Assembly: GCA_934613415.1 (NCBI GenBank)
Contig: CAKTSY010000001.1
Coordinates: 531,813 to 563,812 of the forward strand
Source of the DNA: an uncultured Opitutales bacterium
Lineage (GTDB): Bacteria > Verrucomicrobiota > Verrucomicrobiia > Opitutales > Intestinicryptomonadaceae
Length of the DNA: 32,000 nucleotides
Reading direction: 5' to 3'
Shown here: one piece after another, positions 3,531 to 21,205 of the stretch
Layout: each line of letters starts with the position of its first letter
Position numbering within the stretch: the stretch's first letter is position 1
Position numbers and translations under genes: made by a program
Notes under the pieces: model-generated
The model's input: the letters and a program-made list of their open reading frames with translations, nothing else
Database searches by the model: none
Told to the model about the DNA's origin: nothing

Positions 3531-3538
3531 GTAAGAAT
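3511..3538 (+). promoter_or_regulatory. Candidate sigma-70-type promoter (proximal) for mraZ/dcw operon
   Basis: Perfect -35 TTGACA (3511-3516), 16-bp spacer, AAGAAT (3533-3538). This would give a ~20-nt leader before the AAGGGAG RBS and ATG 3567. Confidence 0.3.
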
Positions 3539-3566
3539 GGAGGAAAATGGTAAATTAAGGGAGAAA

Positions 3567-4031: not shown

Positions 4032-4100
4032 TTACCGTGAAAATTTTACACACATTTAAAACCGCAACATTTAAAAGAGGTCGCACAAAATCGGCACTAT

Positions 4101-5045: not shown

Positions 5046-5047
5046 AA

Positions 5048-5434: not shown

Positions 5435-7203
5435 ACCGTTCGTTTATAGACAAGTTTAGAATTACACTTCTTACCGTTTTTGTTGCGGCAGGCTTTTTGG
5501 GCGTTGGCGCAAACTTATGCAGGCTGCACATTTTCAAGCGCTCGTACTGCGTAAAGGCAATAGAGGAAACCCGCAACCGCACAATTAAAATAGACGCGCG
5601 CCGCGGCGATATTTTAGACTCGCGAGGGAACATTTTAGCGACAACAGCCCCCTACATAGAATTGGGCTGCGACCCCGTAAGCATAACCGAAAAAGACGAG
5701 CAAAAATTTGGCCAGCTTGCCGAAATTTTGGGAATAACAACCGCCCAAATAAAAGAGCTTTGCAAAAAAACAACCTACAAAACGCAAGACGGGGCAGTGC
5801 GTCAAAAAAGATGGCGCAAAATGGCCGACCAACTCGACGAAGGCACATACTCGCGCATTAAAGACCTGAACTTTAAGGGCATTTATGGAGTAAGAAAATA
5901 CAAGAGAATGTACCCTGCAGGGGCTCTTACTTCGCACATAATAGGCTTTATGAATGCGGAATCCGTTCCCGAATTCGGCGTAGAAAAAATGTCGGACTAC
6001 TACCTTAGGGGTCAAGACGGCTGGAAGGAAATTGAATTCGACGGCCGCCGCAGGGAAATGGCGCAGTTTAGGGGTCGCGAACAGGACGCCGTAGACGGAA
6101 TGAATGTTGAAACCAGCATAGACATTATTTTGCAGGAGGCAGCCCATCAGGAAATGCGCAAGATTGTTTCGAATTTCAATCCCGACGGAGCAAGCATAAT
6201 AATTAGCGACACTTCGGGCTTTATTTTGTCGATGGTAAACTACCCGAATTTCGACCCGAATTCCTACAACAAATTCCCGATGGCAAATTTGCGCAACCGC
6301 GCAATTTCCGACAGGCTAGAACCGGGCTCGACATTCAAAATAGTTCCCGTTTCGGCAGCTTTAAACGAAGCCTTTGTTAGCGCCGACGACGTTTTCGACT
6401 GCAAGAACTCGACTGCAACCTACAAGAACAGAATTTTAAGGCTCCCCAAAGACACCCACGTTTACGAAAAGCTTTCGGTGCGCGACATAATAAAGAAAAG
6501 CAGCAACCGCGGCTCGGCGCAAATTGGCATTTTAATTGGCGAAAACAAGCTTTACGAATACGCAAAAGAATTCGGCTACGGCGAAAAGACGGGCATTGGC
6601 TTGGCAGGCGAAGTTAGCGGCATTTTGCACAAGGTAAAAGACTGGGACGGCCTTACAATTACAAGGCTTCCGATGGGGCACGCAATAGACGCCACGCCCT
6701 TACAGATACACTGCGCAATGAGCGTTATTGCAAACGGCGGCTTGTATATGAAGCCCCAAGTTATAAAAAAGGTTACCTCGAAAAGCGACGGGGCAAGCAT
6801 TGTATTTTCGCCCAAGGCAATGCGAAGGGTTGTTTCGCCCAAAACCGCCGCCCTTATGAGCGATATGCTTGTTGGCGTTACCGAAAAAGGCGGAACTGCT
6901 ACAAGGGCGGCAGTAGAAGGCTTTAAAGTTGCAGGCAAAACCGGCACGGCGCAAAAGATTGTAAACGGCCGCTATGTGTCCACCCAGCACGTTGCGTCTT
7001 TTACGGGGTTTTTCCCCGCGCAAAGGCCAAGGCTTGTAATAACCGTAATTATAGACAACCCAAGGGGCAAACCCGGCAGCGGCTACGGCGGCGTTTCGGC
7101 GGCTCCCGCATTTAGCAGCTTGGCAAAAACCGCTGCAAGCTACCTTGGCATACAAAACGACGAAGAAGCCGCAAAAGGCGTCGCCTGGAAATTTTCGAAA
7201 TGA
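5431..7203 (+). CDS. ftsI: Peptidoglycan D,D-transpeptidase FtsI (class B PBP, PBP3)
   Basis: N-terminal TM anchor and PBP dimerisation region. Transpeptidase motifs SxxK (GSTFKIV), SxN (KKSSNRG) and KTG (AGKTGTAQK). dcw position. Confidence 0.9.
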   Translation: MNRSFIDKFRITLLTVFVAAGFLGVGANLCRLHIFKRSYCVKAIEETRNRTIKIDARRGDILDSRGNILATTAPYIELGCDPVSITEKDEQKFGQLAEILGITTAQIKELCKKTTYKTQDGAVRQKRWRKMADQLDEGTYSRIKDLNFKGIYGVRKYKRMYPAGALTSHIIGFMNAESVPEFGVEKMSDYYLRGQDGWKEIEFDGRRREMAQFRGREQDAVDGMNVETSIDIILQEAAHQEMRKIVSNFNPDGASIIISDTSGFILSMVNYPNFDPNSYNKFPMANLRNRAISDRLEPGSTFKIVPVSAALNEAFVSADDVFDCKNSTATYKNRILRLPKDTHVYEKLSVRDIIKKSSNRGSAQIGILIGENKLYEYAKEFGYGEKTGIGLAGEVSGILHKVKDWDGLTITRLPMGHAIDATPLQIHCAMSVIANGGLYMKPQVIKKVTSKSDGASIVFSPKAMRRVVSPKTAALMSDMLVGVTEKGGTATRAAVEGFKVAGKTGTAQKIVNGRYVSTQHVASFTGFFPAQRPRLVITVIIDNPRGKPGSGYGGVSAAPAFSSLAKTAASYLGIQNDEEAAKGVAWKFSK

Positions 7204-8768
7204 ACAATACTTTTTTAAATCTTGCAAACCTGATATGCCTTAGCGGCAAAAGACTTTCTTTTGCCGAACAAAAAGGCCCGTCTATTGTTTTCACAACAAG
7301 CGATTTGGCAAAAAGCGTAAAGGCTTTAAAAGTTACAAACGACAAATCGCTTCCCGTAAAGACCCTTTTGGCAGACTCCAGAAGAATAACCGAAGGTTCG
7401 GCTTTCTTTGCCGTTAAGGGCTTTAATTGCGACGGCAACCAGTTTGTAGGCGATGCAATACACAGAGGGGCTGTTGCAGTTGTTTCCGAAAACGAAGCGC
7501 CTAAAATTTGCCCCACCACTTGGATACAGGTGCAAAATATGGCGTTTGCCAAGGCTTGGGCTGCAAAGGCGTTTTACGAAAACCCCGACGAAAGCCTTAA
7601 AATTTTTGCTGTTACCGGCACCAACGGCAAGACAAGCGTAAGCTGGCTTATTAAGCATATGCTAGACCGCCTCGGGCAAAAATGCGGTATGGTTGGCACC
7701 ATTCAATACGACTTGGGCGGACGCTGCATTCCCGCAGGCAGAACAACGCCCGACTCGCTTGAACTTTACGCAATGCTCTACCAAATGAGGCACGCTTCGT
7801 GCAAGTCGCTTGCAATAGAAATAAGCTCGCACTCGCTGGAGCAGTCGCGCGTTAAGGGGCTTTCGGTAGACTGCGCATGCTTTACAAACCTAACCCAAGA
7901 CCATATCGACTACCACAAGACTATGGACGAATACTTTAAGTGCAAAGAACTGCTCTTTAAGGGTTCGGTTTGCAAAATGCCCAAAAGCGCGGCAATAAAT
8001 ATCGACGACGAAAAAGGCGCATATCTGGCTAAAAACCTCGACAAATCCATACGCCTTATCACCTTTGCAATAGACAACAAAGACGCCGTTATTCGCGCCG
8101 AAAATCTTAAGATGGACTCGCAAAGCGCAACTTTCGACTTGGTGTACCCCGAAGGCACAATAAAAAATTTGAAGATTTCAATGCCGGGGCACTACAATGT
8201 CTTGAATGTGCTTACGGCTTTGTCGGCGCTTTATTCACAAGATATTGACATCGTAAAAGCGGCCCAAACCCTTGCCGACTTTAGGGGGGTTCCCGGCAGA
8301 ATGGAGCGCGTAAAAAGCAATGCGCCATTCGACATTTTTATAGACTACGCCCACACCGACGACGCCCTTAAAAACGGGCTTTCAATGCTTAAAAGCGTTA
8401 CAAAGAAAAGGCTTTTGGTTGTGTTCGGCTGCGGTGGCAAACGCGACAGAACAAAGAGACCAAAAATGGTTGCAGCCGTTCAAAAATATGCGGACTTTGC
8501 GTGGGCAACCTCTGACAATCCGCGCGGCGAAGACATCTCGCAAATCTTTGCGGATATGAAAGCGGGAGTTGTAGACAATTCAACAATAGAGTTTGTTGAA
8601 AACCGCCGCCGAGCCATAAATATGGCAATTTCGCAGGCAAAGGAAGGCGACTGCATTCTTATTGCGGGCAAGGGTCACGAAACATTTCAGGAATTAAAAG
8701 ACACCATTATTCCCTTCGACGACAAAAAGGTTGCCGAAGAGCTGCTCGCCTTAAGGGAGTTGATATAA
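7200..8768 (+). CDS. murE: UDP-N-acetylmuramoyl-L-alanyl-D-glutamate--2,6-diaminopimelate ligase MurE
   Basis: Mur ligase P-loop VTGTNGKTSVSW. DNPR motif (TSDNPRGED), associated with meso-DAP specificity. GKGHE near the C-terminus. ATGA overlap with ftsI. Confidence 0.95.
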   Translation: MNNTFLNLANLICLSGKRLSFAEQKGPSIVFTTSDLAKSVKALKVTNDKSLPVKTLLADSRRITEGSAFFAVKGFNCDGNQFVGDAIHRGAVAVVSENEAPKICPTTWIQVQNMAFAKAWAAKAFYENPDESLKIFAVTGTNGKTSVSWLIKHMLDRLGQKCGMVGTIQYDLGGRCIPAGRTTPDSLELYAMLYQMRHASCKSLAIEISSHSLEQSRVKGLSVDCACFTNLTQDHIDYHKTMDEYFKCKELLFKGSVCKMPKSAAINIDDEKGAYLAKNLDKSIRLITFAIDNKDAVIRAENLKMDSQSATFDLVYPEGTIKNLKISMPGHYNVLNVLTALSALYSQDIDIVKAAQTLADFRGVPGRMERVKSNAPFDIFIDYAHTDDALKNGLSMLKSVTKKRLLVVFGCGGKRDRTKRPKMVAAVQKYADFAWATSDNPRGEDISQIFADMKAGVVDNSTIEFVENRRRAINMAISQAKEGDCILIAGKGHETFQELKDTIIPFDDKKVAEELLALRELI

Positions 8769-8789
8769 CTTTAAATACAAGGGTAAAAA

Positions 8790-10388
8790 ATGCCATTCTT
8801 TAAATCTAACGACTTGAAAATCTGGACCGGCGGCGAATGGAAACAGCTGCCCAAAGACATAACTATTAACAAGTTTTCCACAGACACTCGCACGCTTGAA
8901 AAAGGCGATGCCTTTGTTTGCCTAGTTGGCGAACGCGACGGACACGAATTTGCAAAAACAGCGCAGGAATTGGGAGCTAGCGCAATAATAGCCTCTAAAG
9001 AGCTAGAGGGCATAGAAATTCCCGTATTGCAGGTTGCCGACACATTAAAGGCACTGCAAACCATAGCAAAAATGCACAGGCTTAGGCTCGACTACCCCGT
9101 AGTTGGAATAACGGGCTCGTGCGGCAAAACTTTCACAAAGGAATTATTGGCAAAAACTCTTGCATGGCGCAGCCCCTGCTATTCCGAAAAAAATTTAAAC
9201 AACCAGCTGGGCGTAGCCTTAAGCCTGCTTAAGGCCGACTGCAAAAACAACAACTTGGCAATTATTGAAGCCGGCGTTTCGCGCCCAGAAGAGATGGACG
9301 TTTTGGCCTCCATGATAGAGCCGGACATTGCCGTTATAACCAATGTTACGGCGTCGCATTTGGCGGGCTTTGGCGAAATAAAACAAATTGCAAAAGAAAA
9401 GGCAAAGCTTGCCGAACACTGTGCCGAAGGCGGCTATTGCGTTATGCCCGCGGGCCTGCTTTCGTGGAAGTCTTTCGACGAACTAAAATGCAAAAAGGCA
9501 ATAGCCTTGCCTATGGACGCCCCCGAAACAAAAGCCGACTTGGTGTTCAGATACCAAATAGGCTATTTGCCCGACAAGTGCTCGATAGAAATTTACCTTG
9601 AAGGCGGCAACGAATATTCGTTTGAAACCCCCCTTATGAGCAGGGGCAACGCCGAAGACACGGTTTTGGCGATAATAGTTTCGCTTATGCTCGGCTGCAA
9701 AGAAGAAATTATATATACGGGCATAGAAAACACAAAGAATGTGGGCTATAGAAACCTGTTTGTAAACACGCCCAATGCCGAATATTTTATAGACTGCTAC
9801 AACGCAAACCCCACTTCTATGAAAGACTCTTTGGAGTTTTTCGAATTAAAATCGAAAGACGCCACGCAAAGAACTTTTGTTTTGGGCTCTATGGCCGAAT
9901 TGGGAATTTCCACACTGAGCTACCATAGGGAAATTGCAAACAACATAAAACGCCGCGAAAACGACAAGGCAATATTGGTTGGCGAAAGCGCAAACATCTA
10001 CAAGGACGCCCTTATAGAAAACGGCTGGAACGAAGCCGACATAACACTTTGCGAATCGGCGCAAGACGTAAAGCCTTTGTTGGAAAACGCGGTGGGGTTT
10101 GTGTTCCTAAAGGGCAGTCGCAAATACGCGCTTGAAAACGCCCTGCCCGACGAAGTTGTAAACACAATAAACGGAACCGAACCAAAATCCGAGGAACCCG
10201 CAAACGAAGAAAAGCCCGAAGACGAAACGCCGCCTAGCCCCAGCGAAAACGACGACGAACCCCACGCGCAAACCCTTTTAGACAGCATCGACGAAAACGA
10301 CGACGAAAGCGAGGAACACCATTTTTGCGACGACGACGATTTCGACGACGAAAACATACAAATAGACAAAGATATTGAAAGATTCTAA
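8790..10388 (+). CDS. murF: UDP-N-acetylmuramoyl-tripeptide--D-alanyl-D-alanine ligase MurF with a 76-aa acidic C-terminal extension
   Basis: P-loop GITGSCGKTFTKE, DCYNANPTSM and GSMAELG motifs. The MurF body ends near ...FLKGSRKYALENALPDEV. The tail (10158-10385) is Asp/Glu/Pro-rich. Confidence 0.9.
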   Translation: MPFFKSNDLKIWTGGEWKQLPKDITINKFSTDTRTLEKGDAFVCLVGERDGHEFAKTAQELGASAIIASKELEGIEIPVLQVADTLKALQTIAKMHRLRLDYPVVGITGSCGKTFTKELLAKTLAWRSPCYSEKNLNNQLGVALSLLKADCKNNNLAIIEAGVSRPEEMDVLASMIEPDIAVITNVTASHLAGFGEIKQIAKEKAKLAEHCAEGGYCVMPAGLLSWKSFDELKCKKAIALPMDAPETKADLVFRYQIGYLPDKCSIEIYLEGGNEYSFETPLMSRGNAEDTVLAIIVSLMLGCKEEIIYTGIENTKNVGYRNLFVNTPNAEYFIDCYNANPTSMKDSLEFFELKSKDATQRTFVLGSMAELGISTLSYHREIANNIKRRENDKAILVGESANIYKDALIENGWNEADITLCESAQDVKPLLENAVGFVFLKGSRKYALENALPDEVVNTINGTEPKSEEPANEEKPEDETPPSPSENDDEPHAQTLLDSIDENDDESEEHHFCDDDDFDDENIQIDKDIERF

Positions 10389-10400
10389 CTTAATTTTGCT

Positions 10401-11498
10401 ATGTTATACTATCTGGCTGACTACGAAAATTTTTTCGGCCCGCTAAGGCTATTTAGATATTTGTCGTTTAGATGCCTTATGGCGTTTTGCTTTGCCGCGT
10501 TTATAGGGTTTCTTATTGCGCCGTATGCCATAGACATTCTGCACAAAATAAAATTCGGGCAGGCTTTTAGAACAAAAGAACAGGTTGGCAAACTTGCCGA
10601 ATTGCACGCCGCAAAAAAGGGAACGCCTACAATGGGCGGCATTATAATATTTTTTGCGCTTGTAATTTCGGCGGTGCTTTGGGCGCAGCTAAACACGCTT
10701 GTTTTGGTTTCGCTTTTTGTTTATGTGTCGTTCACAATTTTGGGCTTTGCCGACGATTTTCTTAAAATTAAAAGAAAAAGCAGCGAGGGCGTTCACGGCA
10801 AAGTTAAGCTTTTAGTGCAGCTAATTGTGTCGCTTGCATGCGTTTTTGTTTTGGTAAACAGCCAATACGAAGGCGTTGTAAGAGATTTGTACGCGCCCTT
10901 TATAAAAGGCCCCATTATAAGCAATATGCCGATTTGGGCATTGTGTGCATTTTTCTTTTTGGTAATTTCTGGGGCAAGCAATGCAATTAACCTAACCGAC
11001 GGCGTAGACGGCCTGGCTATAGGCTGCACAATTTCGTCTACACTTGCCTACGGCGTGTTTGCGTATGTTGCGGGCAACGCAATTGCCGCAAACTATTTGT
11101 TTTTACCCGCTATAAACGGCTGCGGCGAACTGTGCGTAGTTTGCGCCGCCCTAGTTGGGGCAAGCATGGCGTTTTTGTGGCACAATGCGTATCCTGCCGC
11201 CGTATTTATGGGCGACACTGGCTCGCTTGCACTAGGCGGCTTAATAGGCACAATGGCAATTTTAACGGCGCAGCCTTTAACCCTTGTAATTGTCGGCGGC
11301 GTTTTTGTTATGGAAACCGTATCGGTTATGATGCAGGTTTCTTCCTACAAACTTTGCGGAAAAAGAATTTTTAGATGCACTCCCATACACCACCATTTTG
11401 AATACGGCGGTTGGAAGGAAACGCAGGTTGTAATAAGGTTTTGGATAATTTCGCTTGCGTTTGCCCTTATGGGAATTGCAACACTTAAATTTAGATGA
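10401..11498 (+). CDS. mraY: Phospho-N-acetylmuramoyl-pentapeptide transferase MraY
   Basis: Polytopic membrane protein with NAINLTDGVDGLA, MFMGDTGSLALGG and HHHFE motifs. dcw position. Confidence 0.95.
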   Translation: MLYYLADYENFFGPLRLFRYLSFRCLMAFCFAAFIGFLIAPYAIDILHKIKFGQAFRTKEQVGKLAELHAAKKGTPTMGGIIIFFALVISAVLWAQLNTLVLVSLFVYVSFTILGFADDFLKIKRKSSEGVHGKVKLLVQLIVSLACVFVLVNSQYEGVVRDLYAPFIKGPIISNMPIWALCAFFFLVISGASNAINLTDGVDGLAIGCTISSTLAYGVFAYVAGNAIAANYLFLPAINGCGELCVVCAALVGASMAFLWHNAYPAAVFMGDTGSLALGGLIGTMAILTAQPLTLVIVGGVFVMETVSVMMQVSSYKLCGKRIFRCTPIHHHFEYGGWKETQVVIRFWIISLAFALMGIATLKFR

Positions 11499-12769
11499 GC
11501 GACAAAATTAAAGAGCTTTGCAATAACAAGCCCGCCGCAATATTCGGCAAGGGCGTTAGTGCGTTGTGCGCCAAAGGCCTGTTCGACAGCCTTGGCATAG
11601 AATCGGTTTTATATTCCGAAAACGCCGCCGACAACTGCCCCGTTTTCGACGAAAACGCGGCAAAAAAACACAGCCTGGTTGTATATTCGCCTGCGTTTCG
11701 CCCCGATCACAAGTGGCTAAAGCTTGCCAAACAAAACAACGCCGAGCTTATTTGCGAGCCAGACTTGGCTTCGCTTGCCTGGCAGGGCAACATAATTGCA
11801 ATTTCGGGCACAAACGGCAAAACCACAACAACCGCATTTTTGGCAAAGGCATTAAACGAAGCCGGCATTAACGCAGTTGCCGCCGGCAACATAGGCATTC
11901 CGCTTTCAAAATTTTGCGTCGAAAAAAACGGCGGCAAAAATTGCACTGCGGTTTGCGAGCTAAGCTCTTTTCAGCTTATGGGCGTAAAATATATGTCGCC
12001 TATAGCCTATGTTTGGACAAATTTCGATCAAGACCATTTGGATTGGCACACCGATATGCGCGAATATTTCGACGCAAAATTTGCGCTGGTTAAAATGCTA
12101 AAAAAACCCGTGTTTATTGTGGGGCAAAGCGTTGCCGACTATGCCGAAAAATACGGAGTTGCCCTGCCCGATTTTACCGAAGTTGTGCAAAGGCAAAACA
12201 ACTGCCCAAAGCCTTTCGACAACAACATACAATGCGAAAATTATTGTCTGGCAAAAGCTCTGTTTAAAAAGCTGCAACTTAGCGAAGAAATTTTGCAAAA
12301 GGCAGCGCAAACATTTTCGCTTGCAAAATATAGGTTTGCAACAAGCGGCACAATAAACGGCATAACCTTTATAAACGACTCGAAAGGCACAAACGCGCAC
12401 TCTACAATAGCCGCCATAAACGCCCTTAAGGGAAAGCCCGTTATTTGGATAGGCGGCGGCAAAAATAAAAAGTGCGACTTAACCGATTTGGCAAACGCCG
12501 TTGCCGAAAACTGCAAATGCGCATTTTTAATTGGGCAAAGCGCAAGCTTGCTAGAGCCATTGCTTAACGAAAGACACTGCAATACAAAAACTTGCGCCAC
12601 GCTAAAAGAAGCCGTATGCGGGGCGTACACCGCGGCAAAAAGCGGATACTATGTGCTCTTTAGCCCAGCCTTTTCAAGCTTCGGAATGTTCGACGGCTAC
12701 GCACACCGCGGAAAATGTTTCGACGAAGAGCTTTTAAGTTTGAAAATCGCGCAAAAAGGGCAAGTATAA
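11495..12769 (+). CDS. murD: UDP-N-acetylmuramoylalanine--D-glutamate ligase MurD
   Basis: Mur ligase P-loop ISGTNGKTTTTAFL, NDSKGTN and SPAFSSFGMF motifs. ATGA overlap with mraY. Confidence 0.9.
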   Translation: MSDKIKELCNNKPAAIFGKGVSALCAKGLFDSLGIESVLYSENAADNCPVFDENAAKKHSLVVYSPAFRPDHKWLKLAKQNNAELICEPDLASLAWQGNIIAISGTNGKTTTTAFLAKALNEAGINAVAAGNIGIPLSKFCVEKNGGKNCTAVCELSSFQLMGVKYMSPIAYVWTNFDQDHLDWHTDMREYFDAKFALVKMLKKPVFIVGQSVADYAEKYGVALPDFTEVVQRQNNCPKPFDNNIQCENYCLAKALFKKLQLSEEILQKAAQTFSLAKYRFATSGTINGITFINDSKGTNAHSTIAAINALKGKPVIWIGGGKNKKCDLTDLANAVAENCKCAFLIGQSASLLEPLLNERHCNTKTCATLKEAVCGAYTAAKSGYYVLFSPAFSSFGMFDGYAHRGKCFDEELLSLKIAQKGQV

Positions 12770-12796
12770 TTTCAATACATAAAGGATAACCACACT

Positions 12797-13990
12797 ATGA
12801 AAAACTCACTTACAATAACGGCCATTGCCGCCTTGCATATTGCGGTAGGTTTGCTTATATTCGCGCAGTCGGGCTGCAACTCGGCTAGCGACCAAAAAAC
12901 GGAAAAAGACGTTAACGCCGAAATAGTTCCCGCCAACGAAGAAAAGGTTGAAACTGCCGCCCCCGTTCAGGAAGAAGCTCCCGAAGGCAGCTCGGCATTA
13001 AGGGCAAACCCAACAAGGCCCGTTTGGTCGATGGACAACGGCAAAAACAAGCCCGTTATAGTCGAAAACCAGCCCTCTACAGTTTCGCCTAAATCTCAGG
13101 CAAACGAAGGGCTTATTGCACCCTCTACCTTAACGGCTAAAAGCGAAAAACAGCTGCCCGAAAATACAAAGATGTATACCGTAGCCAAGGGCGACTCGCT
13201 CGGCAAAATCGCAAGACGCCACAACACAACCGTTTCGAAACTTAAAAGCCTAAACAGCCTAAGCAGCCTTACAATAAAAGTAGGTCAAGAATTGATTGTG
13301 CCTGCAAACCCCTCCGACGAAGTTGTAAACCAAACCGCTCCCAAAGCGCAAACAATGGCTTCGGTTGAAAGCGTAGGCACCGACACAATAAAATATAAAG
13401 TTCAAAAAGGCGATTCGCTCGGCAAGATTGCAAAACGCCACAACACAACCGTTTCGCAAATTAAGGCTTTAAACAACTTAAAGAACGACACTATCCGCAT
13501 CGGGCAAACCCTTACGCTTGAAAAATCGGGCAAAGCGGTTTCCGAAACAAAAGCTTCGGCAAAAACCGAAGCGCAAAAAAGCGAAGTTGCAGGCAATTTC
13601 GAGGTATACAAAGTTCAAAAAGGAGACACATTGGGCGCAATAGCCAGAAAAAACAAAGTTAGCCTTTCGCAGATAGAAAAGCTTAACCCCTCTATAAACC
13701 CCAAAAGGCTTAAGATTGGCCAGCTTGTAAAAATAAAGGCTGCAGCCGAAGTTAAGGAACAGCCCAAACCTCAGGCAACCCCCGAACAGCCCAAGGTTGA
13801 AGAACCCAAGCAACAGGTTCAACCCACAGTATCTGCGGCTCCTGCAGCTCCCGCAGCTGCGGCAGAAAACAAGGTTGAACAACAACCCAAGCCGGTTCAA
13901 ACACAACCTGCACAGCCCGTGCAAGTTCAGCAAACTACAACTCCCGCCCCCGAACCAAAGGCAGGCGAAGAGGAAGTTATAGAAATATAA
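12797..13990 (+). CDS. Exported/anchored protein with three LysM peptidoglycan-binding domains and a Pro/Gln/Ala-rich C-terminal tail; no catalytic domain recognised
   Basis: N-terminal hydrophobic signal/anchor with Cys27 (IFAQSGC, a weak lipobox). LysM1 at 13175-13303 (YTVAKGDSLGKIARRHNTTVSKLKSLN...), LysM2 at 13394-13519 and LysM3 at 13607-13735. Low-complexity tail at 13736-13987. Confidence 0.85.
   Translation: MKNSLTITAIAALHIAVGLLIFAQSGCNSASDQKTEKDVNAEIVPANEEKVETAAPVQEEAPEGSSALRANPTRPVWSMDNGKNKPVIVENQPSTVSPKSQANEGLIAPSTLTAKSEKQLPENTKMYTVAKGDSLGKIARRHNTTVSKLKSLNSLSSLTIKVGQELIVPANPSDEVVNQTAPKAQTMASVESVGTDTIKYKVQKGDSLGKIAKRHNTTVSQIKALNNLKNDTIRIGQTLTLEKSGKAVSETKASAKTEAQKSEVAGNFEVYKVQKGDTLGAIARKNKVSLSQIEKLNPSINPKRLKIGQLVKIKAAAEVKEQPKPQATPEQPKVEEPKQQVQPTVSAAPAAPAAAAENKVEQQPKPVQTQPAQPVQVQQTTTPAPEPKAGEEEVIEI
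13187..13477 (+). repeat. Intragenic direct DNA repeat (LysM1/LysM2 modules)
   Basis: Copy 1 is about 13187-13257 and copy 2 about 13406-13477. They are visibly similar at the nucleotide level and share the exact 22-mer ACGCCACAACACAACCGTTTCG. Confidence 0.8.
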
Positions 13991-14021
13991 TTAAAAAAAG
14001 AGAAAGCCGAATACATTTGAA

Positions 14022-15158
14022 ATGAAAAGCGAAAAACAAAAGACCGAGGGTAAGTCTCCAATTCCGTCGTGGCTGTTGTTTTTGCTTTTTGTAATCTTCC
14101 TTACCACTCTGGGCTTGGTTATCCTTATAAGCGCAGGGTCGGCAAAGGAAGATTCGCTTGTATTCTTTAAAAAACAGGCAACGTGGCTTGTAATTGCAAC
14201 AATTATAGGAACGGCGGCGGCTTTTATAAATCTGAATCTACTAAAGAAATACGCCCTGCACTTCGGCGTATTTTCGGTTTTAACGCTTATTGCGGTTGCA
14301 ATTCCGCACATAGGCAAAGTTGTTAACGGCGCGCGCCGTTGGATAGAAATTGGCCCCATTACATTTCAGCCTAGCGACATAGGCAAAATTGCGTTGGTTG
14401 TGCTGCTTGCCTGGTATTTGCAAAACAACCAAAGGTATATGAAAACCTTTTTAAAGGGCTTTGTATACCCGATGACAATTGCGGGCTTTTTCTTTTTGCT
14501 TATAATAATCGAGCCCGATTTCGGCACGGCAACACTTTGCGCAATCGTCTCGCTTAGCATGATATTTTTAGCGGGCACAAAATTTTTGTATATAATTGCA
14601 ATTTTCATTTTTGGGGTTGCCGGCATTTTAACTTTGGTTTATTTCGACCCCGTGCGCTGGGCACGCCTTACAAGCTATTTGGATTTGGAAAACAACAAGC
14701 TAGACGGCGCATACCAGCTTTATCAGGCAATATTGGGCTTTGGCGCGGGCGGTGTAGACGGCGCAGGCCTAGGCCAGGGCCGCCAGCAGCAGTTCTTTTT
14801 ACCCGAGGCGCACACCGACTTTATCTTTGCCATAGTAGGCGAAGAACTTGGGCTTGTGTTTACCCTTTTGGTTGTAGCCGCCTTTTTTGCAATGTTTTTA
14901 ATTGTAGTTTCAAGGCTAAAAAAAGCCCCGAATATTTTCGAGCTATACATTGCGGCGGGCTCTATGCTAATGATAACGCTGCAGTCGATTTTCAATATGG
15001 GTGTTGTTACGGGAATGTTCCCGACCAAGGGAATTTCGCTTCCGTTTTTAAGCTATGGGGGATCTAACCTTGTGGCTATGTTCGTTTTTGCGGGGCTGCT
15101 TGTAAACTGCCTGCGCTCGTGGAACAAACCCATTAAAATAAAGGCTACACTGCTATGA
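14022..15158 (+). CDS. ftsW: Peptidoglycan glycosyltransferase FtsW (SEDS family)
   Basis: Roughly 10-TM protein with the SEDS signature LPEAHTDFIFAIVGEELG and SYGGSN. Located between murD and murG, apart from the LysM insertion. Confidence 0.9.
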   Translation: MKSEKQKTEGKSPIPSWLLFLLFVIFLTTLGLVILISAGSAKEDSLVFFKKQATWLVIATIIGTAAAFINLNLLKKYALHFGVFSVLTLIAVAIPHIGKVVNGARRWIEIGPITFQPSDIGKIALVVLLAWYLQNNQRYMKTFLKGFVYPMTIAGFFFLLIIIEPDFGTATLCAIVSLSMIFLAGTKFLYIIAIFIFGVAGILTLVYFDPVRWARLTSYLDLENNKLDGAYQLYQAILGFGAGGVDGAGLGQGRQQQFFLPEAHTDFIFAIVGEELGLVFTLLVVAAFFAMFLIVVSRLKKAPNIFELYIAAGSMLMITLQSIFNMGVVTGMFPTKGISLPFLSYGGSNLVAMFVFAGLLVNCLRSWNKPIKIKATLL

Positions 15159-16243
15159 GTAATTTTGTAATATCCTGCGGCGGCACGGGCGGGCATTTGG
15201 CCCCCGGAATAGCAATAGGCAAGGCGTTGATAAACAGGGGGCACAAAGTAGTTTTTGCCATAAGCAAAAAACAGGTAGATTCCGCCCTTGTAGAAAAATA
15301 CCCCGAATGCGACTTTGTAAAAATTTCGGGCGCGCCCTTTTCGCTTAATCCGAAAAAGGCGTTAACATTTGCATATATGCAAACTTCGGGGCTTTTGGCT
15401 TCGCTTAAACTTTTAAAAAATTTTAATTGCAACACGGCAATAGCCTTTGGCGGCTTTAATTCGTTGGGCGTTGCGCTTGCGGCAAAAATACTTAAACGCC
15501 GCCTTGTTTTGCACGAAGCCAATATGAAAATCGGCAAGGCCGTACGCTTTTTAAGCGTGTTTGCCGACCGCATTTACATTCCCCACGGAACTAGTATGGA
15601 GCGTTTTAAGCCCGACGTTGTAAAATATGCCGGCTACCCCGTTCGCCCCGAAATTAAGCGCATACCCAAAACCGAGGCTAAAGAATTTTTCGGCTTTGGC
15701 GAAAGCGACAGGGTTTTGCTTGTGTTTGGCGGCAGCCAAGGCGCCTTTGCCCTTAACGACTGGCTTGCAAAAAACGAAAGGCTTTTCGCCGAAAACGGAA
15801 TTTCGGTGCTGTGCATTTGCGGCGCAAAATTCGGGGTTGAAAACGAAAAGCTTTTGCCCGCAAAAAACGGCAAAACGGTTAAAATAAAAAGAATTATGTT
15901 TTGCGACAATATGGCGTATGCGCTTTCGTGCTGCGACCTTGTTGTTGCGCGCGCGGGCGCGGGCTCTATTGCCGAATTTGCAAAATGCGGCTGCGTGCCC
16001 GTGTTAGTGCCCTTGCCCACTTCGGCCGACAACCACCAGTTTGAAAACGCAAAGCTTGTAGAGCGTTGCGGCGGCGGCCTGCTTATTCAGCAAAGCGACA
16101 TCGACAAACTTTTCGACAATGTCAAAGACCTGTTTTTTAACGATGCATTAAAAGAGCGTATGGCAAAAAATCTTGCAAGGATAGACGCCATGAACGACGT
16201 TTCCGAAATGATTGCAGACATAGAAAAGTTGGCGGAGGCTTAA
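15155..16243 (+). CDS. murG: UDP-N-acetylglucosamine--N-acetylmuramyl-(pentapeptide) pyrophosphoryl-undecaprenol GlcNAc transferase MurG
   Basis: N-terminal G-loop SCGGTGGHLAPGIAI, GGSQGA, and C-terminal AGAGSIAE...NHQFENA. ATGA overlap with ftsW. Confidence 0.92.
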   Translation: MSNFVISCGGTGGHLAPGIAIGKALINRGHKVVFAISKKQVDSALVEKYPECDFVKISGAPFSLNPKKALTFAYMQTSGLLASLKLLKNFNCNTAIAFGGFNSLGVALAAKILKRRLVLHEANMKIGKAVRFLSVFADRIYIPHGTSMERFKPDVVKYAGYPVRPEIKRIPKTEAKEFFGFGESDRVLLVFGGSQGAFALNDWLAKNERLFAENGISVLCICGAKFGVENEKLLPAKNGKTVKIKRIMFCDNMAYALSCCDLVVARAGAGSIAEFAKCGCVPVLVPLPTSADNHQFENAKLVERCGGGLLIQQSDIDKLFDNVKDLFFNDALKERMAKNLARIDAMNDVSEMIADIEKLAEA

Positions 16244-16250
16244 AAAGCAA

Positions 16251-17468
16251 ATGGGCGTAGTCTATATGGGAGGCATTTGCGGAATGGGAATGGCGCCTTT
16301 GGCCATTCTCCTTAAGGCCGCAGGCAACACGGTTTTAGGCTTCGACGACAACGCCGACATTCGCGTAAAAAACCTGCTGCAGCAATTCGGCATAGAATGC
16401 CAAAGCTCTTTTAACGAAGCTGTAAAACCCGACTTGTTTGTAATTAGCACAGCCCTTTGTAGCCGCAACTTAAAAAGCACGGCAAAAATACAAAGACGCG
16501 GCGTTTGTTTTGCGGACTTTTGCAAAAACAGAAAGCTTGTTGCAATAACGGGCAGCCACGGCAAAAGCACGGTAAGCAATCTTTGCGCGCACGCAATAAA
16601 CAAACTTTCGCTTAACGCAGGCTATATGGTAGGAGCCTTGTCAGAGCACTACGCCCCGGCAAAATTCTGCAAAGACGGCGAATATATGTTTTCGGAAATA
16701 GACGAAAGCGACGCTACCATAGAAAACTTTTCGCCCGAAATTTGCGTTGCCTTAAACTACGATTTAGACCACACCGACACCTACAAAAACGCCGACGCCC
16801 TAAAGGATATGTTTTGCAGGCTTTTTGAAAGGACAAAGCAAAAAATAATAGTGCCCAGCTGCGACAAAACATTGTGCGAACTGGCAAAAGCTTCGGGCAA
16901 AAATTTCGAGATTGTGCAAATTGAACCGAATGCCGATTTTTCCTTAATAAACGCGCTTATGGCGCAATGCGCATTAAAAAGCGTTTTTGGAGACACCTTA
17001 GATTGCACCGTTTTAAATTCTTTTGAAGGAACATACCGAAGGCAGGAGGTTTTGTGCAATACCCCCGCCCTTTTTGCGATGGCAGACTACGCGCATCACC
17101 CAAGCGAAGTAAAAGCCTTTTTAAATTGGTTTGGCAAAAAATACGGCAACGGCAATTATATATTTTTCCAGCCCCACAGATATTCAAGAACAAAGTGCTT
17201 TGCAAAAACTTTTGCGCAAATTTTAGAGGATTTTGCAAAACAAGGCAACAGCGTCTACGTTTTGCCTGTATATGCGGCAAGCGAAAAATTCGACGAGCTT
17301 GGAACTTCCGACAAAATAACGCAAAATTCGCAACTGTTAAAATTGGCAAGTTTTTCGGAAATGCAAAAAATTGTAGAGCAGCTAAAAACCGGCGGCAAAA
17401 AATCCGCCGCATTTGTCGGGGCCGGCGACATTTATTTTAAGGCAAAGGAGTTTATATTACAGAAATGA
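16251..17468 (+). CDS. murC: UDP-N-acetylmuramate--L-alanine ligase MurC (compact, 405 aa)
   Basis: N-terminal YMGGICGMGMAPLA (IGIGGxGMS-like), P-loop ITGSHGKSTVSNL, EIDESD and DYAHHPSEV motifs. Confidence 0.85.
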   Translation: MGVVYMGGICGMGMAPLAILLKAAGNTVLGFDDNADIRVKNLLQQFGIECQSSFNEAVKPDLFVISTALCSRNLKSTAKIQRRGVCFADFCKNRKLVAITGSHGKSTVSNLCAHAINKLSLNAGYMVGALSEHYAPAKFCKDGEYMFSEIDESDATIENFSPEICVALNYDLDHTDTYKNADALKDMFCRLFERTKQKIIVPSCDKTLCELAKASGKNFEIVQIEPNADFSLINALMAQCALKSVFGDTLDCTVLNSFEGTYRRQEVLCNTPALFAMADYAHHPSEVKAFLNWFGKKYGNGNYIFFQPHRYSRTKCFAKTFAQILEDFAKQGNSVYVLPVYAASEKFDELGTSDKITQNSQLLKLASFSEMQKIVEQLKTGGKKSAAFVGAGDIYFKAKEFILQK

Positions 17469-18379
17469 AAAGTTTTAAATTGGCGGTACTGTGCGGCGGA
17501 ATTTCGCCCGAAAGAGACGTTTCGCTAGTAAGCGGCAGCTATGTGGCAAAGGCTTTGGAAAATTTCTACGATGTGGAAAAATTTGAGCTTGCCGAAAACA
17601 AACTGCCCGAAAAGCTTAACGGCAAAGACTATGTTGTAATGCCCGTAATGCATGGCGACTACGGCGAAAACGGCGGGCTTCAGCGCGACTTGGAAAACGC
17701 CAATATTGCATTTGCAGGCTGCGGCAGTTTGTCTAGCTCGGTTTGCATGGTTAAACCCGCGGCAAAAGCCCTTATGCGCTCGGCAAATATTAACACTGCA
17801 AAGGAAATTCTGTTTTGTTCTTCCGACAAAATTTCGGGGCAAAGCCTGGTAGAAATTTTGGACAATAAAACAGTAATAAAACCCGCCGATAAAGGTTCAA
17901 GCGTTGGGCTTAAGTGCCCCGAAGGCGTTGCCGAAACCGACAGCGCGCTAAAAGATTTGGACAACGGGCAATGGATGGCCGAAAGCTTTTTTAAGGGACG
18001 CGAATTGTCGGTTGGCGTTTTAAACGGCCGCGCAATGGGCATTGTTGAAATAAAACCCGAAGGCGGCGTATACGACTTTAAACGCAAGTATACGGCGGGC
18101 TCTACAAAATACGAATTTCCCGCCCAAATAGGCGACGAAAATACAAAAAAAATTCAGGCTGCCGCCGAACGCGCCTACATAGCCTGCGGCTGCCGAGACT
18201 TTTGCAGGGTAGACTTTATTTTGGGCGAAACTTCGTTTATTGCGCTTGAAATAAACACGCTTCCGGGTATGACGCCCACAAGCTTGCTGCCCAAAAGCGC
18301 ATCGTGCATAGGCTTAAGTTTTAACGACTTGTGCAACGAAATGGTAAAACCCGCAATACAAAGGTTTTTAAACAGCTAA
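17465..18379 (+). CDS. ddl: D-alanine--D-alanine ligase Ddl
   Basis: AVLCGGISPERDVSLVSG N-terminus. ATP-grasp C-terminal motifs (CRVDFIL, EINTLPGMT). ATGA overlap with murC. Confidence 0.9.
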   Translation: MKSFKLAVLCGGISPERDVSLVSGSYVAKALENFYDVEKFELAENKLPEKLNGKDYVVMPVMHGDYGENGGLQRDLENANIAFAGCGSLSSSVCMVKPAAKALMRSANINTAKEILFCSSDKISGQSLVEILDNKTVIKPADKGSSVGLKCPEGVAETDSALKDLDNGQWMAESFFKGRELSVGVLNGRAMGIVEIKPEGGVYDFKRKYTAGSTKYEFPAQIGDENTKKIQAAAERAYIACGCRDFCRVDFILGETSFIALEINTLPGMTPTSLLPKSASCIGLSFNDLCNEMVKPAIQRFLNS

Positions 18380-19245
18380 TGGCAACAAAACAAAAGTCTA
18401 AAACCTGGAAAGACATAGGCAAAAGCAAAAGCTCTAAAAAAGCCCCCTTGTCTTTCGAGGCAAAGTTCAGAAAATTTGCGATATTTTGCAAAATTGGCGG
18501 CTTTGTGCTGCTGTTGGCGGCCTTGGGCTTTGGCGCATACAAGGCGGTGCAGTTGGGCTTCGTAGACGACATTTTATACAACAAAAATCAGGTTGCAAAA
18601 AAGCTGTTTTTAGACAACCCCGACGGCAAGATTTCCCCAAAATGGATAAGGGAATATCTGGGCATAAAAAAGGCAACCCCCATAGACAAAATAGACCTGC
18701 TTGGACTTAAGAAAAAAATCGAAAATGTAAATCAGGTAAGTTCGGCAAAAGTTGAAAGGGTTTACCCCGACCAAATAAAAATCTGCATAACCGAGAAAAA
18801 GCCAATAGCCAAGGTAAACACAAACAACGGCGTTTTGCTTATGTCGGCAAACGGTGAATTTTTTGAACCTATATGCTATGCCGTAGAGGAAATCGACGCG
18901 TTTGTAGAGCTTACGGGTATAAAGATTTTGAAACAGGGCAAAAAATATGTTGCATACCCGATGGCAAAAACCGTAAACGAGCTTTTTGCGGAAACAAAAA
19001 AAATGCTGCCAGCGGTTTTCAACACCTACCAAAGGGTAGACTTAAGCGACCTGCACTCGAAGGTTTCGCCGCTGCTTGAAGTATACACAAACGAAGACGT
19101 TAAAATAATATTTTTGGCGACAGATTTTAACAAGCAGCTTTCCAAGCTCGAATATGTTTTAAGATACGCAAAAGACAAATCCGTAAGGGGTGCACAAATA
19201 GACTTGTCTCTTGAAGGCCGTACTGATATGAAATTGCGAAAATAG
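18379..19245 (+). CDS. ftsQ: Cell division protein FtsQ (POTRA domain)
   Basis: Basic N-terminus and a TM helix (FAIFCKIGGFVLLLAALGFGAY). POTRA-like segment (ISPKWIREYLGIKKATPIDKIDLLGLKKKIENVNQVSSAKVERVYPDQIKICITEKKPIA). Start chosen at ATG 18379, which overlaps the ddl stop (TAATG), rather than ORF-track 18331, which would overlap ddl by 49 nt. Confidence 0.75.
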   Translation: MATKQKSKTWKDIGKSKSSKKAPLSFEAKFRKFAIFCKIGGFVLLLAALGFGAYKAVQLGFVDDILYNKNQVAKKLFLDNPDGKISPKWIREYLGIKKATPIDKIDLLGLKKKIENVNQVSSAKVERVYPDQIKICITEKKPIAKVNTNNGVLLMSANGEFFEPICYAVEEIDAFVELTGIKILKQGKKYVAYPMAKTVNELFAETKKMLPAVFNTYQRVDLSDLHSKVSPLLEVYTNEDVKIIFLATDFNKQLSKLEYVLRYAKDKSVRGAQIDLSLEGRTDMKLRK

Positions 19246-19256: not shown

Positions 19257-20456
19257 ATGAACGACAGCAAAATGGTGGCAGCCCTCGAAATAGGAACCTC
19301 GAAAATGCAGGTTTTTGTGGGGGAAATTGTAGACGGCGAGTCTTTAAGCATTATAGGAATGGGACAAAAGCCCAGTGCTGGCGTAAAAAAAGGCGACATT
19401 GTAGACTTAAAAAAAGCGTCGCAGTTGGCGCAAGAGGCAATTTTAGACGCCGAAAAAAACACAAGCATAAAAACAAAGTCTATTTATGTTAGCATTAGCG
19501 GCTCGCAAATAAAGGGCATGCGCACAATGGGCTATGCAAACGTGCGCAGCGCAAACAATATTGTTACCCAAGAAGACGTAGACAGAGCCTGCGAAGACGC
19601 AAAAAGCAAAACATTGCCCGAAAACAGAGCCTTTATACATTTCATTTGCTGCGGCTACTATATAGACGGCGTATATTGCCAAGACCCTGTCGGCAAGCGC
19701 GCCCGCCGCATAGACGCCGAATTTTGGCTTGTACACGACGATTGCGACGCCATTGCAAACACCGTTCACATTGTGCGAAGCTTCGGAATGGAAGTAGACG
19801 ACATTGTGCTTTCGGCGATTGCGTCGGCTAGAATGGTAACAAGCATGCAGCAGCGCAAGGAAGGCGTTTTGGTTATAGACATAGGCTGCGGCACAACCGA
19901 CTATGCAATGTACAAAAATTCGAGAATAGTTATTGCCGGCACAATTCCCGTAGGCGGCGACCATATTACAAACGACCTTGCGCACGGCCTTAGGCTTTAC
20001 AACAAAAACGCAGAGCTTTTAAAATGCAAAATAGGCAAAGCCGTAATTAGCGAAGACGAAAAATCGGAATTTATCTGGACAAAGGGCGACCAGCAAATTG
20101 GCGACAGAAAAATTTCGCTAAACTCTATGAACATAATAATAAGGGCAAGGCTTGAAGAACTTTTCCTTATACTAAGAGACGAGCTTGGCGAGGTTTTCGA
20201 CTCTACAATTCAAAGCGTTGTAATAACGGGCGGAACCTCGCGCCTTACGGGCATAAACGAGCTTGCCGAGGGCGTTTTGGGCGTAAAATGCACAACGGGC
20301 AAATTCAATTCGTGGGTAAAACATTCGCTTTGCCACCCAGAATTTGCAACGTCGCTTGGGCTGTTAGACTACGCGCTTGAAAACGAAATACGCAACGCTT
20401 CCGACTCGGGCGAAGGCCTGTTTTCTAAAATTAAGGGGCTTTGGAGGAATCTGTAA
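19257..20456 (+). CDS. ftsA: Cell division protein FtsA (actin-like ATPase)
   Basis: VAALEIGTSKMQVFVGE phosphate-1 motif, VIDIGCGTTDYAM, VITGGTSRLTG, and a C-terminal amphipathic membrane-targeting helix (GLFSKIKGLWRNL). Confidence 0.9.
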   Translation: MNDSKMVAALEIGTSKMQVFVGEIVDGESLSIIGMGQKPSAGVKKGDIVDLKKASQLAQEAILDAEKNTSIKTKSIYVSISGSQIKGMRTMGYANVRSANNIVTQEDVDRACEDAKSKTLPENRAFIHFICCGYYIDGVYCQDPVGKRARRIDAEFWLVHDDCDAIANTVHIVRSFGMEVDDIVLSAIASARMVTSMQQRKEGVLVIDIGCGTTDYAMYKNSRIVIAGTIPVGGDHITNDLAHGLRLYNKNAELLKCKIGKAVISEDEKSEFIWTKGDQQIGDRKISLNSMNIIIRARLEELFLILRDELGEVFDSTIQSVVITGGTSRLTGINELAEGVLGVKCTTGKFNSWVKHSLCHPEFATSLGLLDYALENEIRNASDSGEGLFSKIKGLWRNL

Positions 20457-21205
20457 TGGCGGCAAACATAAAGATTATAGGAATCGGCAAAGGAGGCTCT
20501 TTTTTGGCGTCTAAGCTAAAGATGGGAGCCTTTAAAAACGCGGCGTGCTGCGCGGTTTCAACAAACAAGACCGATTTGGAAAGCGTTTCGATAGGCGAAA
20601 AAATGCTGATTAGTGCCGACCCCGAAGCCGCCCAACTTCAGATTGCGTCTATAAAGCGCAGCATAGAAGGATATTCCACAATAATTTTATTGGCGCAATT
20701 TGGGGGAGATAAATCTGCGCATCTGACCGCCGCATTCGCAAAAATTGCAAAGACAATGAATATTGGCAGGCTTGCCATTTGCGCAATTGCAAACAAGATA
20801 GACGACTATTCCAGAGCCTCGCTTGCCCGCCTTAGGGAAAATTGCGAAAACCTGCTATGCCTACCGAACGACCTTTCCGTAGGCGAAATATTCCGTCAAA
20901 ACGATATAATGAAGTCCTTTCAGTATGTGCAGACAATTCCCCCGCAAAGGGTTGCGCCCGAAGTAAAGAAAACTTCGTTTATGTCGAAAATAACAAGGTC
21001 TAAACCCAAAGACACGCCGCCTGCCGAGCAAAAAAGCCAAACGCCAAAGGCGGCCTCGGGCGAAAACCTTGCCCAAGACGAATTTCCCTTCGTTTCGCTT
21101 TCCGAACAAAGGGGCTTTTTCGGCGATACAAAACGCAATTTCTACAACGGCGAAGATTTGGATATACCAACCTATTTGCGCCGAAACCTTAAAATTATAG
21201 TATAG
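20456..21205 (+). CDS. Degenerate, C-terminally truncated FtsZ-like protein (N-terminal FtsZ/tubulin-like domain remnant + disordered linker + conserved FtsA-binding C-terminal peptide)
   Basis: Sits in the ftsZ slot. ATG 20456 overlaps the ftsA stop (TAATG) with a GGAGG RBS at 20443-20447. By-eye alignment to E. coli FtsZ: IKIIGIGKGGSF vs IKVIGVGGGGGN; AVSTNKTDL vs AVNTDAQAL; LAQFGGDKSAHLTAAFAKIAK vs AAGMGGGTGTGAAPVVAEVAK; LLCLPNDL vs LITIPNDK. The C-terminus GEDLDIPTYLRRNLK aligns with DYLDIPAFLRKQ. No counterpart of the FtsZ C-terminal domain. Confidence 0.7.
   Translation: MAANIKIIGIGKGGSFLASKLKMGAFKNAACCAVSTNKTDLESVSIGEKMLISADPEAAQLQIASIKRSIEGYSTIILLAQFGGDKSAHLTAAFAKIAKTMNIGRLAICAIANKIDDYSRASLARLRENCENLLCLPNDLSVGEIFRQNDIMKSFQYVQTIPPQRVAPEVKKTSFMSKITRSKPKDTPPAEQKSQTPKAASGENLAQDEFPFVSLSEQRGFFGDTKRNFYNGEDLDIPTYLRRNLKIIV

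Follow-up and report, generated by a model that had tools for sequence, protein, structure and literature searches.

Polymerization and treadmilling of FtsZ are seen as the organizing principle of division in nearly all walled bacteria. Along the filament the nucleotide face of one subunit packs against the T7/H8/S9/H10 face of the next one's C-terminal domain, and FtsZ C-terminal peptides bind FtsA or other membrane anchors. Here we analyze a gene in the ftsZ slot of the division and cell wall (dcw) gene cluster on a 32,000-nucleotide stretch of DNA from an uncultured Opitutales bacterium (GenBank assembly GCA_934613415.1, contig CAKTSY010000001.1, positions 531,813 to 563,812 of the forward strand), which we call the window. 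The gene, called short ftsZ below, encodes an FtsZ derivative of only 249 amino acids (aa). It is a selected, domain-deleted orthologue of ftsZ and not a decaying remnant.

The closest described proteins are the canonical FtsZs of Verrucomicrobiota and the wider Planctomycetota-Verrucomicrobiota-Chlamydiota (PVC) superphylum (TIGR00065; Pfam PF00091 plus PF12327), which have 375-435 aa whereas short FtsZ proteins have 243-249 aa. The two types share the slot after ftsA, an N-terminal domain that spans strand S1 to the beginning of helix H7, a disordered linker and an extended C-terminal module (QxEFxF...EQRGxF..T.RN.Y.GEDLDxPTYLRR). However, short FtsZ lacks distal H7, the T7 loop, the C-terminal domain, T3 and T5, and has lost the tubulin signature and other nucleotide contacts. 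Surveys of the superphylum report ftsZ as highly conserved in Verrucomicrobiota (PMC12283558, PMC5147048). In Chlamydiota and Planctomycetota ftsZ has been lost entirely and ftsA mostly too, with peptidoglycan synthesis and FtsW/FtsI-type machinery kept (PMC5147048, PMC12283558). These phyla belong to the same superphylum as the clade bearing short ftsZ, and canonical FtsZ function appears to be lost in both settings, but in the short-form clade ftsA is intact and highly constrained and the tail-bearing half of FtsZ is preserved. How the loss of FtsZ in Chlamydiota and Planctomycetota came about is a standing question that short FtsZ touches.

Shortened FtsZ derivatives kept by selection are also found in the Hyphomicrobiales, where truncated FtsZ1/FtsZ3 paralogues (as in A. 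tumefaciens) are presented as duplicates of the FtsZ GTPase with a proposed role in tuning division (bioRxiv 10.1101/2025.09.29.679267). Those paralogues coexist with an essential full-length FtsZ whereas short FtsZ is the positional orthologue. They reportedly lack the linker and the tail. If so, the architecture of short FtsZ is the inverse, with the GTPase core destroyed and the tail kept; the Hyphomicrobiales arrangement of a complete GTPase core without linker or tail is not what we find. The FtsZl1 family is ancient, carries a coiled coil and an alpha-helical C-domain, lies in vWA/GTPase/OmpA operons and coexists with conventional FtsZ (Makarova & Koonin 2010, PMC2875224). Its FtsZ-like N-domain can be aligned only to about H5 and it has no recognizable T6-H7 region or FtsZ C-domain (PMC2875224), a likeness to short FtsZ, but it has neither the FtsZ tail nor the dcw context that short FtsZ has. 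We rejected FtsZl1 membership since in short FtsZ the N-domain is followed by a disordered linker and an FtsZ tail and the neighbors are ftsA and a Dabb-domain gene; moreover, no Pfam Tubulin_2 match was found in short FtsZ at E ≤1. An earlier reading of the window from its letters and open reading frames (the original prediction) had mentioned a C-domain-less FtsZ-like family as a possible relative. This is FtsZl1, which is unrelated by architecture and context. Engineered FtsZ N-domain fragments (Oliva et al. 2004; Osawa & Erickson 2005) are reported to fold alone and to give no normal filaments or GTP hydrolysis without the C-domain or T7. These laboratory constructs reportedly have intact GTP pockets and no tail, whereas short FtsZ has a remodeled pocket and keeps linker and tail. 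No description of short FtsZ was found in the literature searched.

Homology to FtsZ and the parts lost and kept

Matches of the single sequence to known proteins are weak but are to FtsZ only. Residues 3-159 match profile positions 18-192 of TIGR00065 (E 1e-8), although at 34.9 bits the curated whole-protein cutoff of this equivalog model (295.2) is not reached, and Pfam Tubulin (PF00091) matches with E 0.006 and 17.4 bits against a cutoff of 33. When Protein Data Bank (PDB) chains were searched with the single sequence, all 42 sequences with E below 0.1 were FtsZ (best E about 1e-4); a profile of the short family matched 49 PDB sequences, again all FtsZ, with a best E of 5.5e-11. Using hhalign against 27 canonical FtsZs, the probability was 99.9% (E 2e-37) over residues 4-157, a stretch that opens with strand S1 and closes as helix H7 begins.

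Structure prediction gave the same picture. AlphaFold run on a mixed alignment produced a confident six-strand beta-alpha-beta domain (predicted confidence score, pLDDT, of 80-93 at residues 1-140) followed by disorder at residues 157-207 and a moderately confident tail, and FtsZ made up all top 50 matches of this model in a Foldseek search of the PDB. The topology was unchanged in a model rebuilt from seven short-family sequences only, for which the top 50 Foldseek matches were once more all FtsZ. The hhalign result and the two independent AlphaFold models with their Foldseek searches all point to the Rossmann-like nucleotide-binding domain fold of tubulin/FtsZ. The 249-aa protein is thus predicted to fold as an FtsZ N-domain, and these comparisons establish that it descends from FtsZ. 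The original prediction had proposed N-domain homology over the first ~140 residues, with profile, AlphaFold and Foldseek searches as the check. Those searches found the FtsZ relationship and extend it to residue 157; the view that homology ends around the PND motif was mistaken, as ~20 more residues match, into H6 and the start of H7.

The losses were mapped by a motif audit of 102 alignment columns, those with conservation of at least 85% across 55 canonical PVC FtsZs, each checked in seven short proteins. Thirty-one columns are deleted in all seven and lie in the C-domain, T7, T3 (about 14 residues) and T5 (the PFxxE motif, 5 residues), whereas 26 are identical in all seven, about 19 of these in the tail. 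The distal half of H7, the T7 loop (NxDxxD) and the whole C-terminal domain (PF12327) are absent. What remains of the nucleotide site is heavily altered. In T1, six of the seven family members have F, K or T in place of the Asn, which the seventh keeps. Across the family an invariant Asp (D85) stands at the third Gly of T4, which reads G[GDS]D[KNFT]S in five members (GGDKS in the window lineage) and DDDKS or DNDKT in the other two. None of the short proteins has the H7 Asp that contacts guanine (AD is changed to VQ, LS, IS or EQ). Taken together, most nucleotide contacts of canonical FtsZ (GGGTG[ST]G, the T1 Asn, T3, T5 and the H7 Asp) are gone from short FtsZ. Residues that are invariant in the family and non-canonical are found at the former nucleotide face: Q81, F82 and D85 in T4, C109, I111 and K114 in S5/T5, and E144, F146 and Q148 in H6/H7. 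GTPase activity is almost certainly lost, judging from these motifs.

A C-terminal domain is not hidden nearby. A tblastn search of all six frames with the C-domains of two full-length relatives gave no match in the window or in any short-form locus (within about 10 kb), and its positive controls matched at 3e-100 and 3e-14. The next gene, encoding a Dabb-domain protein, starts at 21210, shortly after the stop codon at 21203-21205, and therefore there is no space for further coding sequence. On these points the original prediction stands: it had described degenerate GTP motifs, read FGGDKSA as the tubulin signature GGGTGTG and GKGGS as the reduced T1 glycine loop (in our alignment FGGDKSA falls on GGGTGSG and GKGGSF on GGAGxN), noted the missing C-terminal domain and T7 loop, excluded a C-terminal domain in another frame and proposed an in-frame internal deletion, which our data support. 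Its shortfall of ~19 residues is real and comprises two deletions (~14 residues at T3 and 5 at T5), but T2, which it had counted as missing together with T3, has a counterpart (STN for NTD).

Only 7% of positions in the linker of about 45 residues are invariant in the short family, whereas 27 of the 45 tail positions (60%) are, and tail identity between deep lineages is 71-76%. The tail end, DLDIPTYLRR, is identical in canonical PVC FtsZ. Short FtsZ thus keeps both the linker and the conserved C-terminal peptide of a canonical FtsZ. The FtsA-type tail of the original prediction is indeed intact, but the conserved segment is ~45 residues long and not 15.

Short ftsZ lies directly downstream of ftsA in the dcw cluster, the position of canonical ftsZ, and its ATG at 20456 shares the sequence TAATG (20454-20458) with the ftsA stop codon. 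One NCBI record chooses an in-frame TTG at 20441 as start (254 aa). We rejected this choice in favor of ATG 20456 because the ribosome-binding site is correctly spaced from the ATG and the N-termini of the family align from it. The coupling to ftsA noted earlier (TAATG, with GGAGG at 20443-20447) is borne out by reading the sequence, and the placing of an FtsZ derivative in the ftsZ slot behind ftsA is upheld by position, profile and structure. The NCBI annotation of the protein is 'hypothetical protein', and because pipelines apply this label genome surveys could score these organisms as FtsZ-less.

Distribution, selection and origin of the short family

The exact 249-aa protein was found on 29 independent contigs, the longest of 594 kb, and a 96%-identical variant on eight more. 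Many samples yielded the short gene, which is contained in MEGAHIT, SPAdes and Logan assemblies alike, and it is neither an assembly artefact nor a pseudogene. In an exhaustive HMMER search over 1.84 billion representative proteins just two further full-length short forms were detected, P0034 (248 aa, 46% identity) and P0035 (243 aa, 42% identity), giving three representatives altogether. The remaining matches, apart from P0155, were normal FtsZs matched in two stretches or fragments at contig ends; P0088, P0120, P0063 and P0182 were rejected as contig-end fragments of normal FtsZ. P0155 (304 aa) was also rejected, as an FtsZ-like protein without the PVC tail; its T3 region is shortened, its signature reads GGDAGTNA and its Cys-rich C-terminus is unrelated. 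Clustering at 90% identity gave six short clusters of 243-249 aa in three deep lineages (about 40-45% identity), and in the cluster search the first full-length FtsZ scores 130 bits, down from 354 just before it. The short gene is carried by three GTDB species representatives, all metagenome-assembled genomes (MAGs) of uncultured Opitutales, one of which came from a Hadza human-gut metagenome. Note that the scan of the genome collection used peptide patterns specific for the short family, and so shows distribution and is no test for a second ftsZ. The short-form clade is a small group of uncultured Opitutales, gut-associated at least in part, and short FtsZ is a conserved, monophyletic family.

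Selection was measured as the ratio of non-synonymous to synonymous substitution rates (dN/dS). Between the window and locus L001 short ftsZ gave 0.032 (76.5 synonymous versus 12.5 non-synonymous changes), as compared with 0.009 for ftsA, 0.045 for ftsW and 0.116 for murC. By segment, the ratio was 0.018 for the N-domain and 0.10 for the linker (residues 161-205), whereas the tail (residues 206-249) had five synonymous and no non-synonymous changes. In a second pair, L011 and L022, the value for short ftsZ was 0.075 (ftsA 0.058, ftsQ 0.051), and in a third, L007 and L023, about 0.11 (ftsA 0.10), although there dS is saturated. Short ftsZ is therefore under strong purifying selection similar to that on ftsA. 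Over deep divergences the N-domain, measured against FtsA, evolves more rapidly than canonical N-domains: the ratio of N-domain to FtsA identity is 0.51-0.75 in deep short-short pairs versus 0.88-1.30 in nine of ten canonical pairs (the exception, L016-L018, gives 0.64). The N-domain is thus remodeled yet clearly maintained. The purifying selection and the maintained N-domain refute the reading of short ftsZ as a pseudogene or decaying remnant. The label 'remnant' in the original prediction is thus misleading for a conserved monophyletic family under selection as strong as that on ftsA in three lineage pairs, and the test on orthologues which it had proposed showed no decay (dN/dS 0.03-0.11).

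All short-form loci have the order ftsQ-ftsA-short ftsZ-Dabb gene-CCA-type nucleotidyltransferase gene, and in each the start of the short gene either adjoins the ftsA end directly or overlaps with it. A neighbor-joining tree of FtsA (12 lineages, 387 columns, 300 bootstraps) places the six short-form lineages in one clade with 98% support. They join four full-length lineages, L012, L016, L018 and L024, at 100%, and more typical Opitutales (Cerasicoccus and L021) branch outside this group. The FtsZs of these four sister lineages are full-length (392-413 aa) and occupy the same slot after ftsA; the short gene is the positional orthologue of full-length ftsZ. The Dabb and CCA-type genes are downstream of short ftsZ in all six short-form loci but were not found downstream of full-length ftsZ in L012, L018, L019, L021 or L024, the loci that extend past ftsZ. 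This restriction of the synteny to short forms indicates that the synteny break and the truncation go back to one branch. Constraint on the Dabb gene is weaker, with dN/dS of 0.08-0.33.

A single deletion on the stem of the clade is the parsimonious history. In the clade ancestor a clean internal deletion would have cut out the distal half of H7 together with the T7 synergy loop and the entire C-terminal (GTPase-activating) domain, after which the gene would have been retained as a functional protein of 243-249 aa. Relaxed constraint on FtsZ may predate the deletion, because at least one sister FtsZ, P0037 of L012, is unusually divergent: its core has ≤42% identity to any FtsZ outside its own lineage. 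In precomputed Pfam results FtsZ_C is absent or weak for P0037, P0290 and P0291 (the FtsZs of L012, L018 and L016), and in the group of P0037 it often goes undetected.

A probable role at FtsA and the question of a second FtsZ

Our best overall explanation, held with about even confidence, is that the resident dcw ftsZ lost a domain and was retained as an FtsA-docked protein that works independently of nucleotide. Its tail would dock onto membrane-bound FtsA as FtsZ C-terminal peptides do, the linker would serve as a spacer, and the remodeled former nucleotide face of the folded head would present a new conserved interaction surface, making short FtsZ a nucleotide-independent adaptor or scaffold at FtsA. 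Canonical GTP binding and hydrolysis seem impossible for this protein. Canonical head-to-tail assembly with GTP hydrolysis is precluded because the whole bottom interface and the catalytic T7 loop are gone, and capping of canonical FtsZ filaments is unlikely because the top-face loops T3 and T5 are deleted. The short protein probably acts through FtsA. If so, the part of FtsZ that is still indispensable after loss of the filament and GTPase would be the FtsA-docking module plus a folded head.

A separate question is whether short FtsZ is the only FtsZ-derived protein of these genomes. The original prediction had put forward two readings, a step on the way to FtsZ-less division and a regulator working next to a canonical FtsZ from another locus, and the choice between them turns on this point. 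We consider the absence of a canonical FtsZ from them an even chance or a shade better. Among the nearest full-length homologues traced no second ftsZ was found, P0037, P0290, P0291, P0065, P0015 and P0192 each lying behind their own ftsA in the dcw cluster of another lineage. P0036 (L020, 1340-2542) was rejected as a second copy since it comes from a single contig of a different organism (tetranucleotide r=0.57 to the window). P0036 is a typical full-length FtsZ of the Opitutales type encoded outside any dcw cluster, with a cytochrome c gene on one side and an acetyltransferase/Y1-transposase region on the other. If short FtsZ is the sole copy, an FtsA-centered divisome would organize septal peptidoglycan synthesis by FtsW/FtsI without a treadmilling Z-ring. 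Joining the two propositions gives a walled clade with FtsA, FtsQ, FtsW and FtsI that divides without a GTP-driven filament, through a dead half-FtsZ adaptor, and that is a living intermediate toward the FtsZ loss of Chlamydiota and Planctomycetota; this combined reading is tentative and falls somewhat short of even. If correct, it would provide a tractable intermediate in which division centers on FtsA and proceeds without a Z-ring, within the one PVC phylum regarded as conserving ftsZ uniformly (PMC12283558).

Several points weigh against this interpretation. Three T1 glycines (G9, G11 and G14) survive, and in the window lineage GG83-84 and PND do so as well; because of these short FtsZ may bind nucleotide weakly or in a non-canonical manner. 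Binding of FtsA by the tail is predicted from homology to the FtsZ C-terminal peptide. The negative result on a second ftsZ covers the nearest full-length homologues traced, and all of the genomes are MAGs. Finally, we know of no peptidoglycan-walled, FtsA-bearing bacterium that lacks a polymerizing FtsZ, which lowers the prior for the sole-copy part.

A serious alternative, in our estimation somewhat less likely than not, is that a canonical FtsZ is encoded outside the dcw cluster and that short FtsZ is an accessory regulator which would compete for or modulate FtsA, as a tail decoy or tether, and so tune how the Z-ring is attached or the divisome activated. Walled bacteria nearly always have FtsZ and usually depend on it, the P0036 contig shows that ftsZ can lie outside dcw in at least one Opitutales-like organism, and the second-ftsZ searches covered traced homologues only. 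Paralogues that modulate division have been retained elsewhere, for example in the Hyphomicrobiales (bioRxiv 10.1101/2025.09.29.679267). However, the short gene sits in the orthologous slot, where sister lineages carry their only detected ftsZ, and among the best 120 matches no P0037-like paralogue could be attributed to the short-form clade, although at least 37 contigs of the species are in the database. Regulation by capping filaments is also made unlikely by the missing T3 and T5 loops. If a second FtsZ does exist, short FtsZ would represent a novel class of natural division regulator that targets FtsA.

It is improbable that short FtsZ is a nucleotide-binding, self-assembling cytoskeletal protein that polymerizes through a new interface independent of the C-domain. 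Such a protein would fit the low N-domain dN/dS (0.018), the clustering of family-specific invariant residues on the former nucleotide face and the GxGxxG pattern kept in T1, and FtsZl1 has also been proposed to perhaps assemble by a novel mechanism (PMC2875224). Nevertheless, the T3 and T5 loops are missing, T4 has an invariant Asp for its third Gly, the H7 Asp and (in all but one of seven members) the T1 Asn are lost, T6 varies within the family and the data point to no interface for assembly. A functionless pseudogene or remnant is highly improbable. The scores far under the family cutoffs (35 versus 295 bits for TIGR00065 and 17 versus 33 for Pfam) and the 'hypothetical protein' label would be expected of one, but an unbroken frame of 243-249 aa is found in six clusters, with three deep lineages only about 40-45% identical, dN/dS is low in three lineage pairs and translational coupling to ftsA is conserved. 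Hardly credible at all is an artefact of assembly or gene calling (a collapsed deletion), which has only the unusual length in its favor and is at odds with recovery of the same gene in three kinds of assembly from many samples, or horizontal acquisition of another FtsZ-like family, given the lack of a Tubulin_2 match and of FtsZl1 architecture and a tail and linker that are those of the local PVC FtsZ.

Neighboring genes and other features of the window

The coordinates of short ftsZ, its parts and its neighbors are collected in the table. The claim that the divisome and peptidoglycan cluster is otherwise intact held from mraZ to ftsA (Pfam, open reading frame map and TIGR models), and the dcw gene order is the same in related loci.

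Table. Positions in the window of short ftsZ, its segments and motifs, and the surrounding genes
Feature	Position	Strand	Remarks and basis
Upstream dcw cluster	3486..19245	+	mraZ, rsmH, ftsL-like open reading frame (ORF; 5048-5434), ftsI, murE, murF, mraY, murD, LysM protein, ftsW, murG, murC, ddl, ftsQ; Pfam, ORF map
ftsA, canonical	19257..20456	+	399 aa; TIGR01174 277 bits vs cutoff 176; Pfam FtsA and SHS2_FTSA; dN/dS 0.009
GGAGG ribosome-binding site	20443..20447	+	8 nt upstream of ATG, within end of ftsA; read from sequence
Short ftsZ	20456..21205	+	249 aa plus stop; stop codon 21203-21205
FtsZ N-terminal domain, remodeled	20456..20935	+	Residues 1-160, S1 to start of H7; predicted from hhalign, AlphaFold, Foldseek and motif audit
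T1 loop remnant GIGKGGS (canonical GxGGAGxN)	20480..20500	+	Glycines G9, G11, G14 kept, Asn lost; column audit
T4 tubulin-signature remnant FGGDKSA (canonical LGGGTGSG)	20699..20719	+	D85 invariant in family
T6 PND motif	20864..20872	+	Kept in window lineage; family variants SSD, AKD, PNS, PNN
Disordered Pro/Lys/Ser-rich linker, retained FtsZ C-terminal linker	20936..21067	+	Residues 161-204; pLDDT below 50 at 157-207; dN/dS 0.10 for 161-205
PVC-type conserved C-terminal module LAQDEFPFVSLSEQRGFFGDTKRNFYNGEDLDIPTYLRRNLKIIV, with FtsA-binding-type peptide	21068..21202	+	Residues 205-249; shared with canonical PVC FtsZ
Dabb-domain gene (stress-responsive alpha/beta barrel)	21210-21500	+	Pfam
CCA-adding-type nucleotidyltransferase	21487-22845	+	Overlaps Dabb gene; Pfam

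FtsA has a C-terminal amphipathic membrane-targeting helix (GLFSKIKGLWRNL in the window), and such a helix is present in every lineage. Eleven FtsA positions (E60, I71, M88, R97, N101, R151, H243, L304, G339, N351 and E375) carry residues that each of the six short-form lineages has and none of the six full-length lineages shares, and several of them sit in the SHS2/1C insert. These positions may reflect co-adaptation with short FtsZ.

Between murD and ftsW lies a gene for a protein with three LysM domains (12797-13990, + strand). It is conserved in the short-form lineages and in those full-length loci that reach that far upstream (L012, L021 and L024), and looks like a lineage-specific member of the dcw cluster. 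The MurC encoded at 16251-17468 (+ strand) is short (405 aa) and matches TIGR01082 over its N-terminal half only, with 196 bits against a cutoff of 335. murB is absent from the dcw cluster of the window; Cerasicoccus (L019) has a 723-aa MurC-MurB fusion.

At the start of the window (48-2861, + strand) a 937-aa secreted-looking protein is encoded that has a passenger-associated transport (autotransporter-type) repeat. Its C-terminus, VPEPATWAAIFGALALALAIYRRRK, resembles a PEP-CTERM sorting signal, with no match to an NCBIfam PEP-CTERM model at E ≤0.001. In the short-form locus L023 (GCA_028748565.1) cas2 and cas1 are found about 0.5 kb downstream of the CCA-type gene, at 4348-5115 (- strand).

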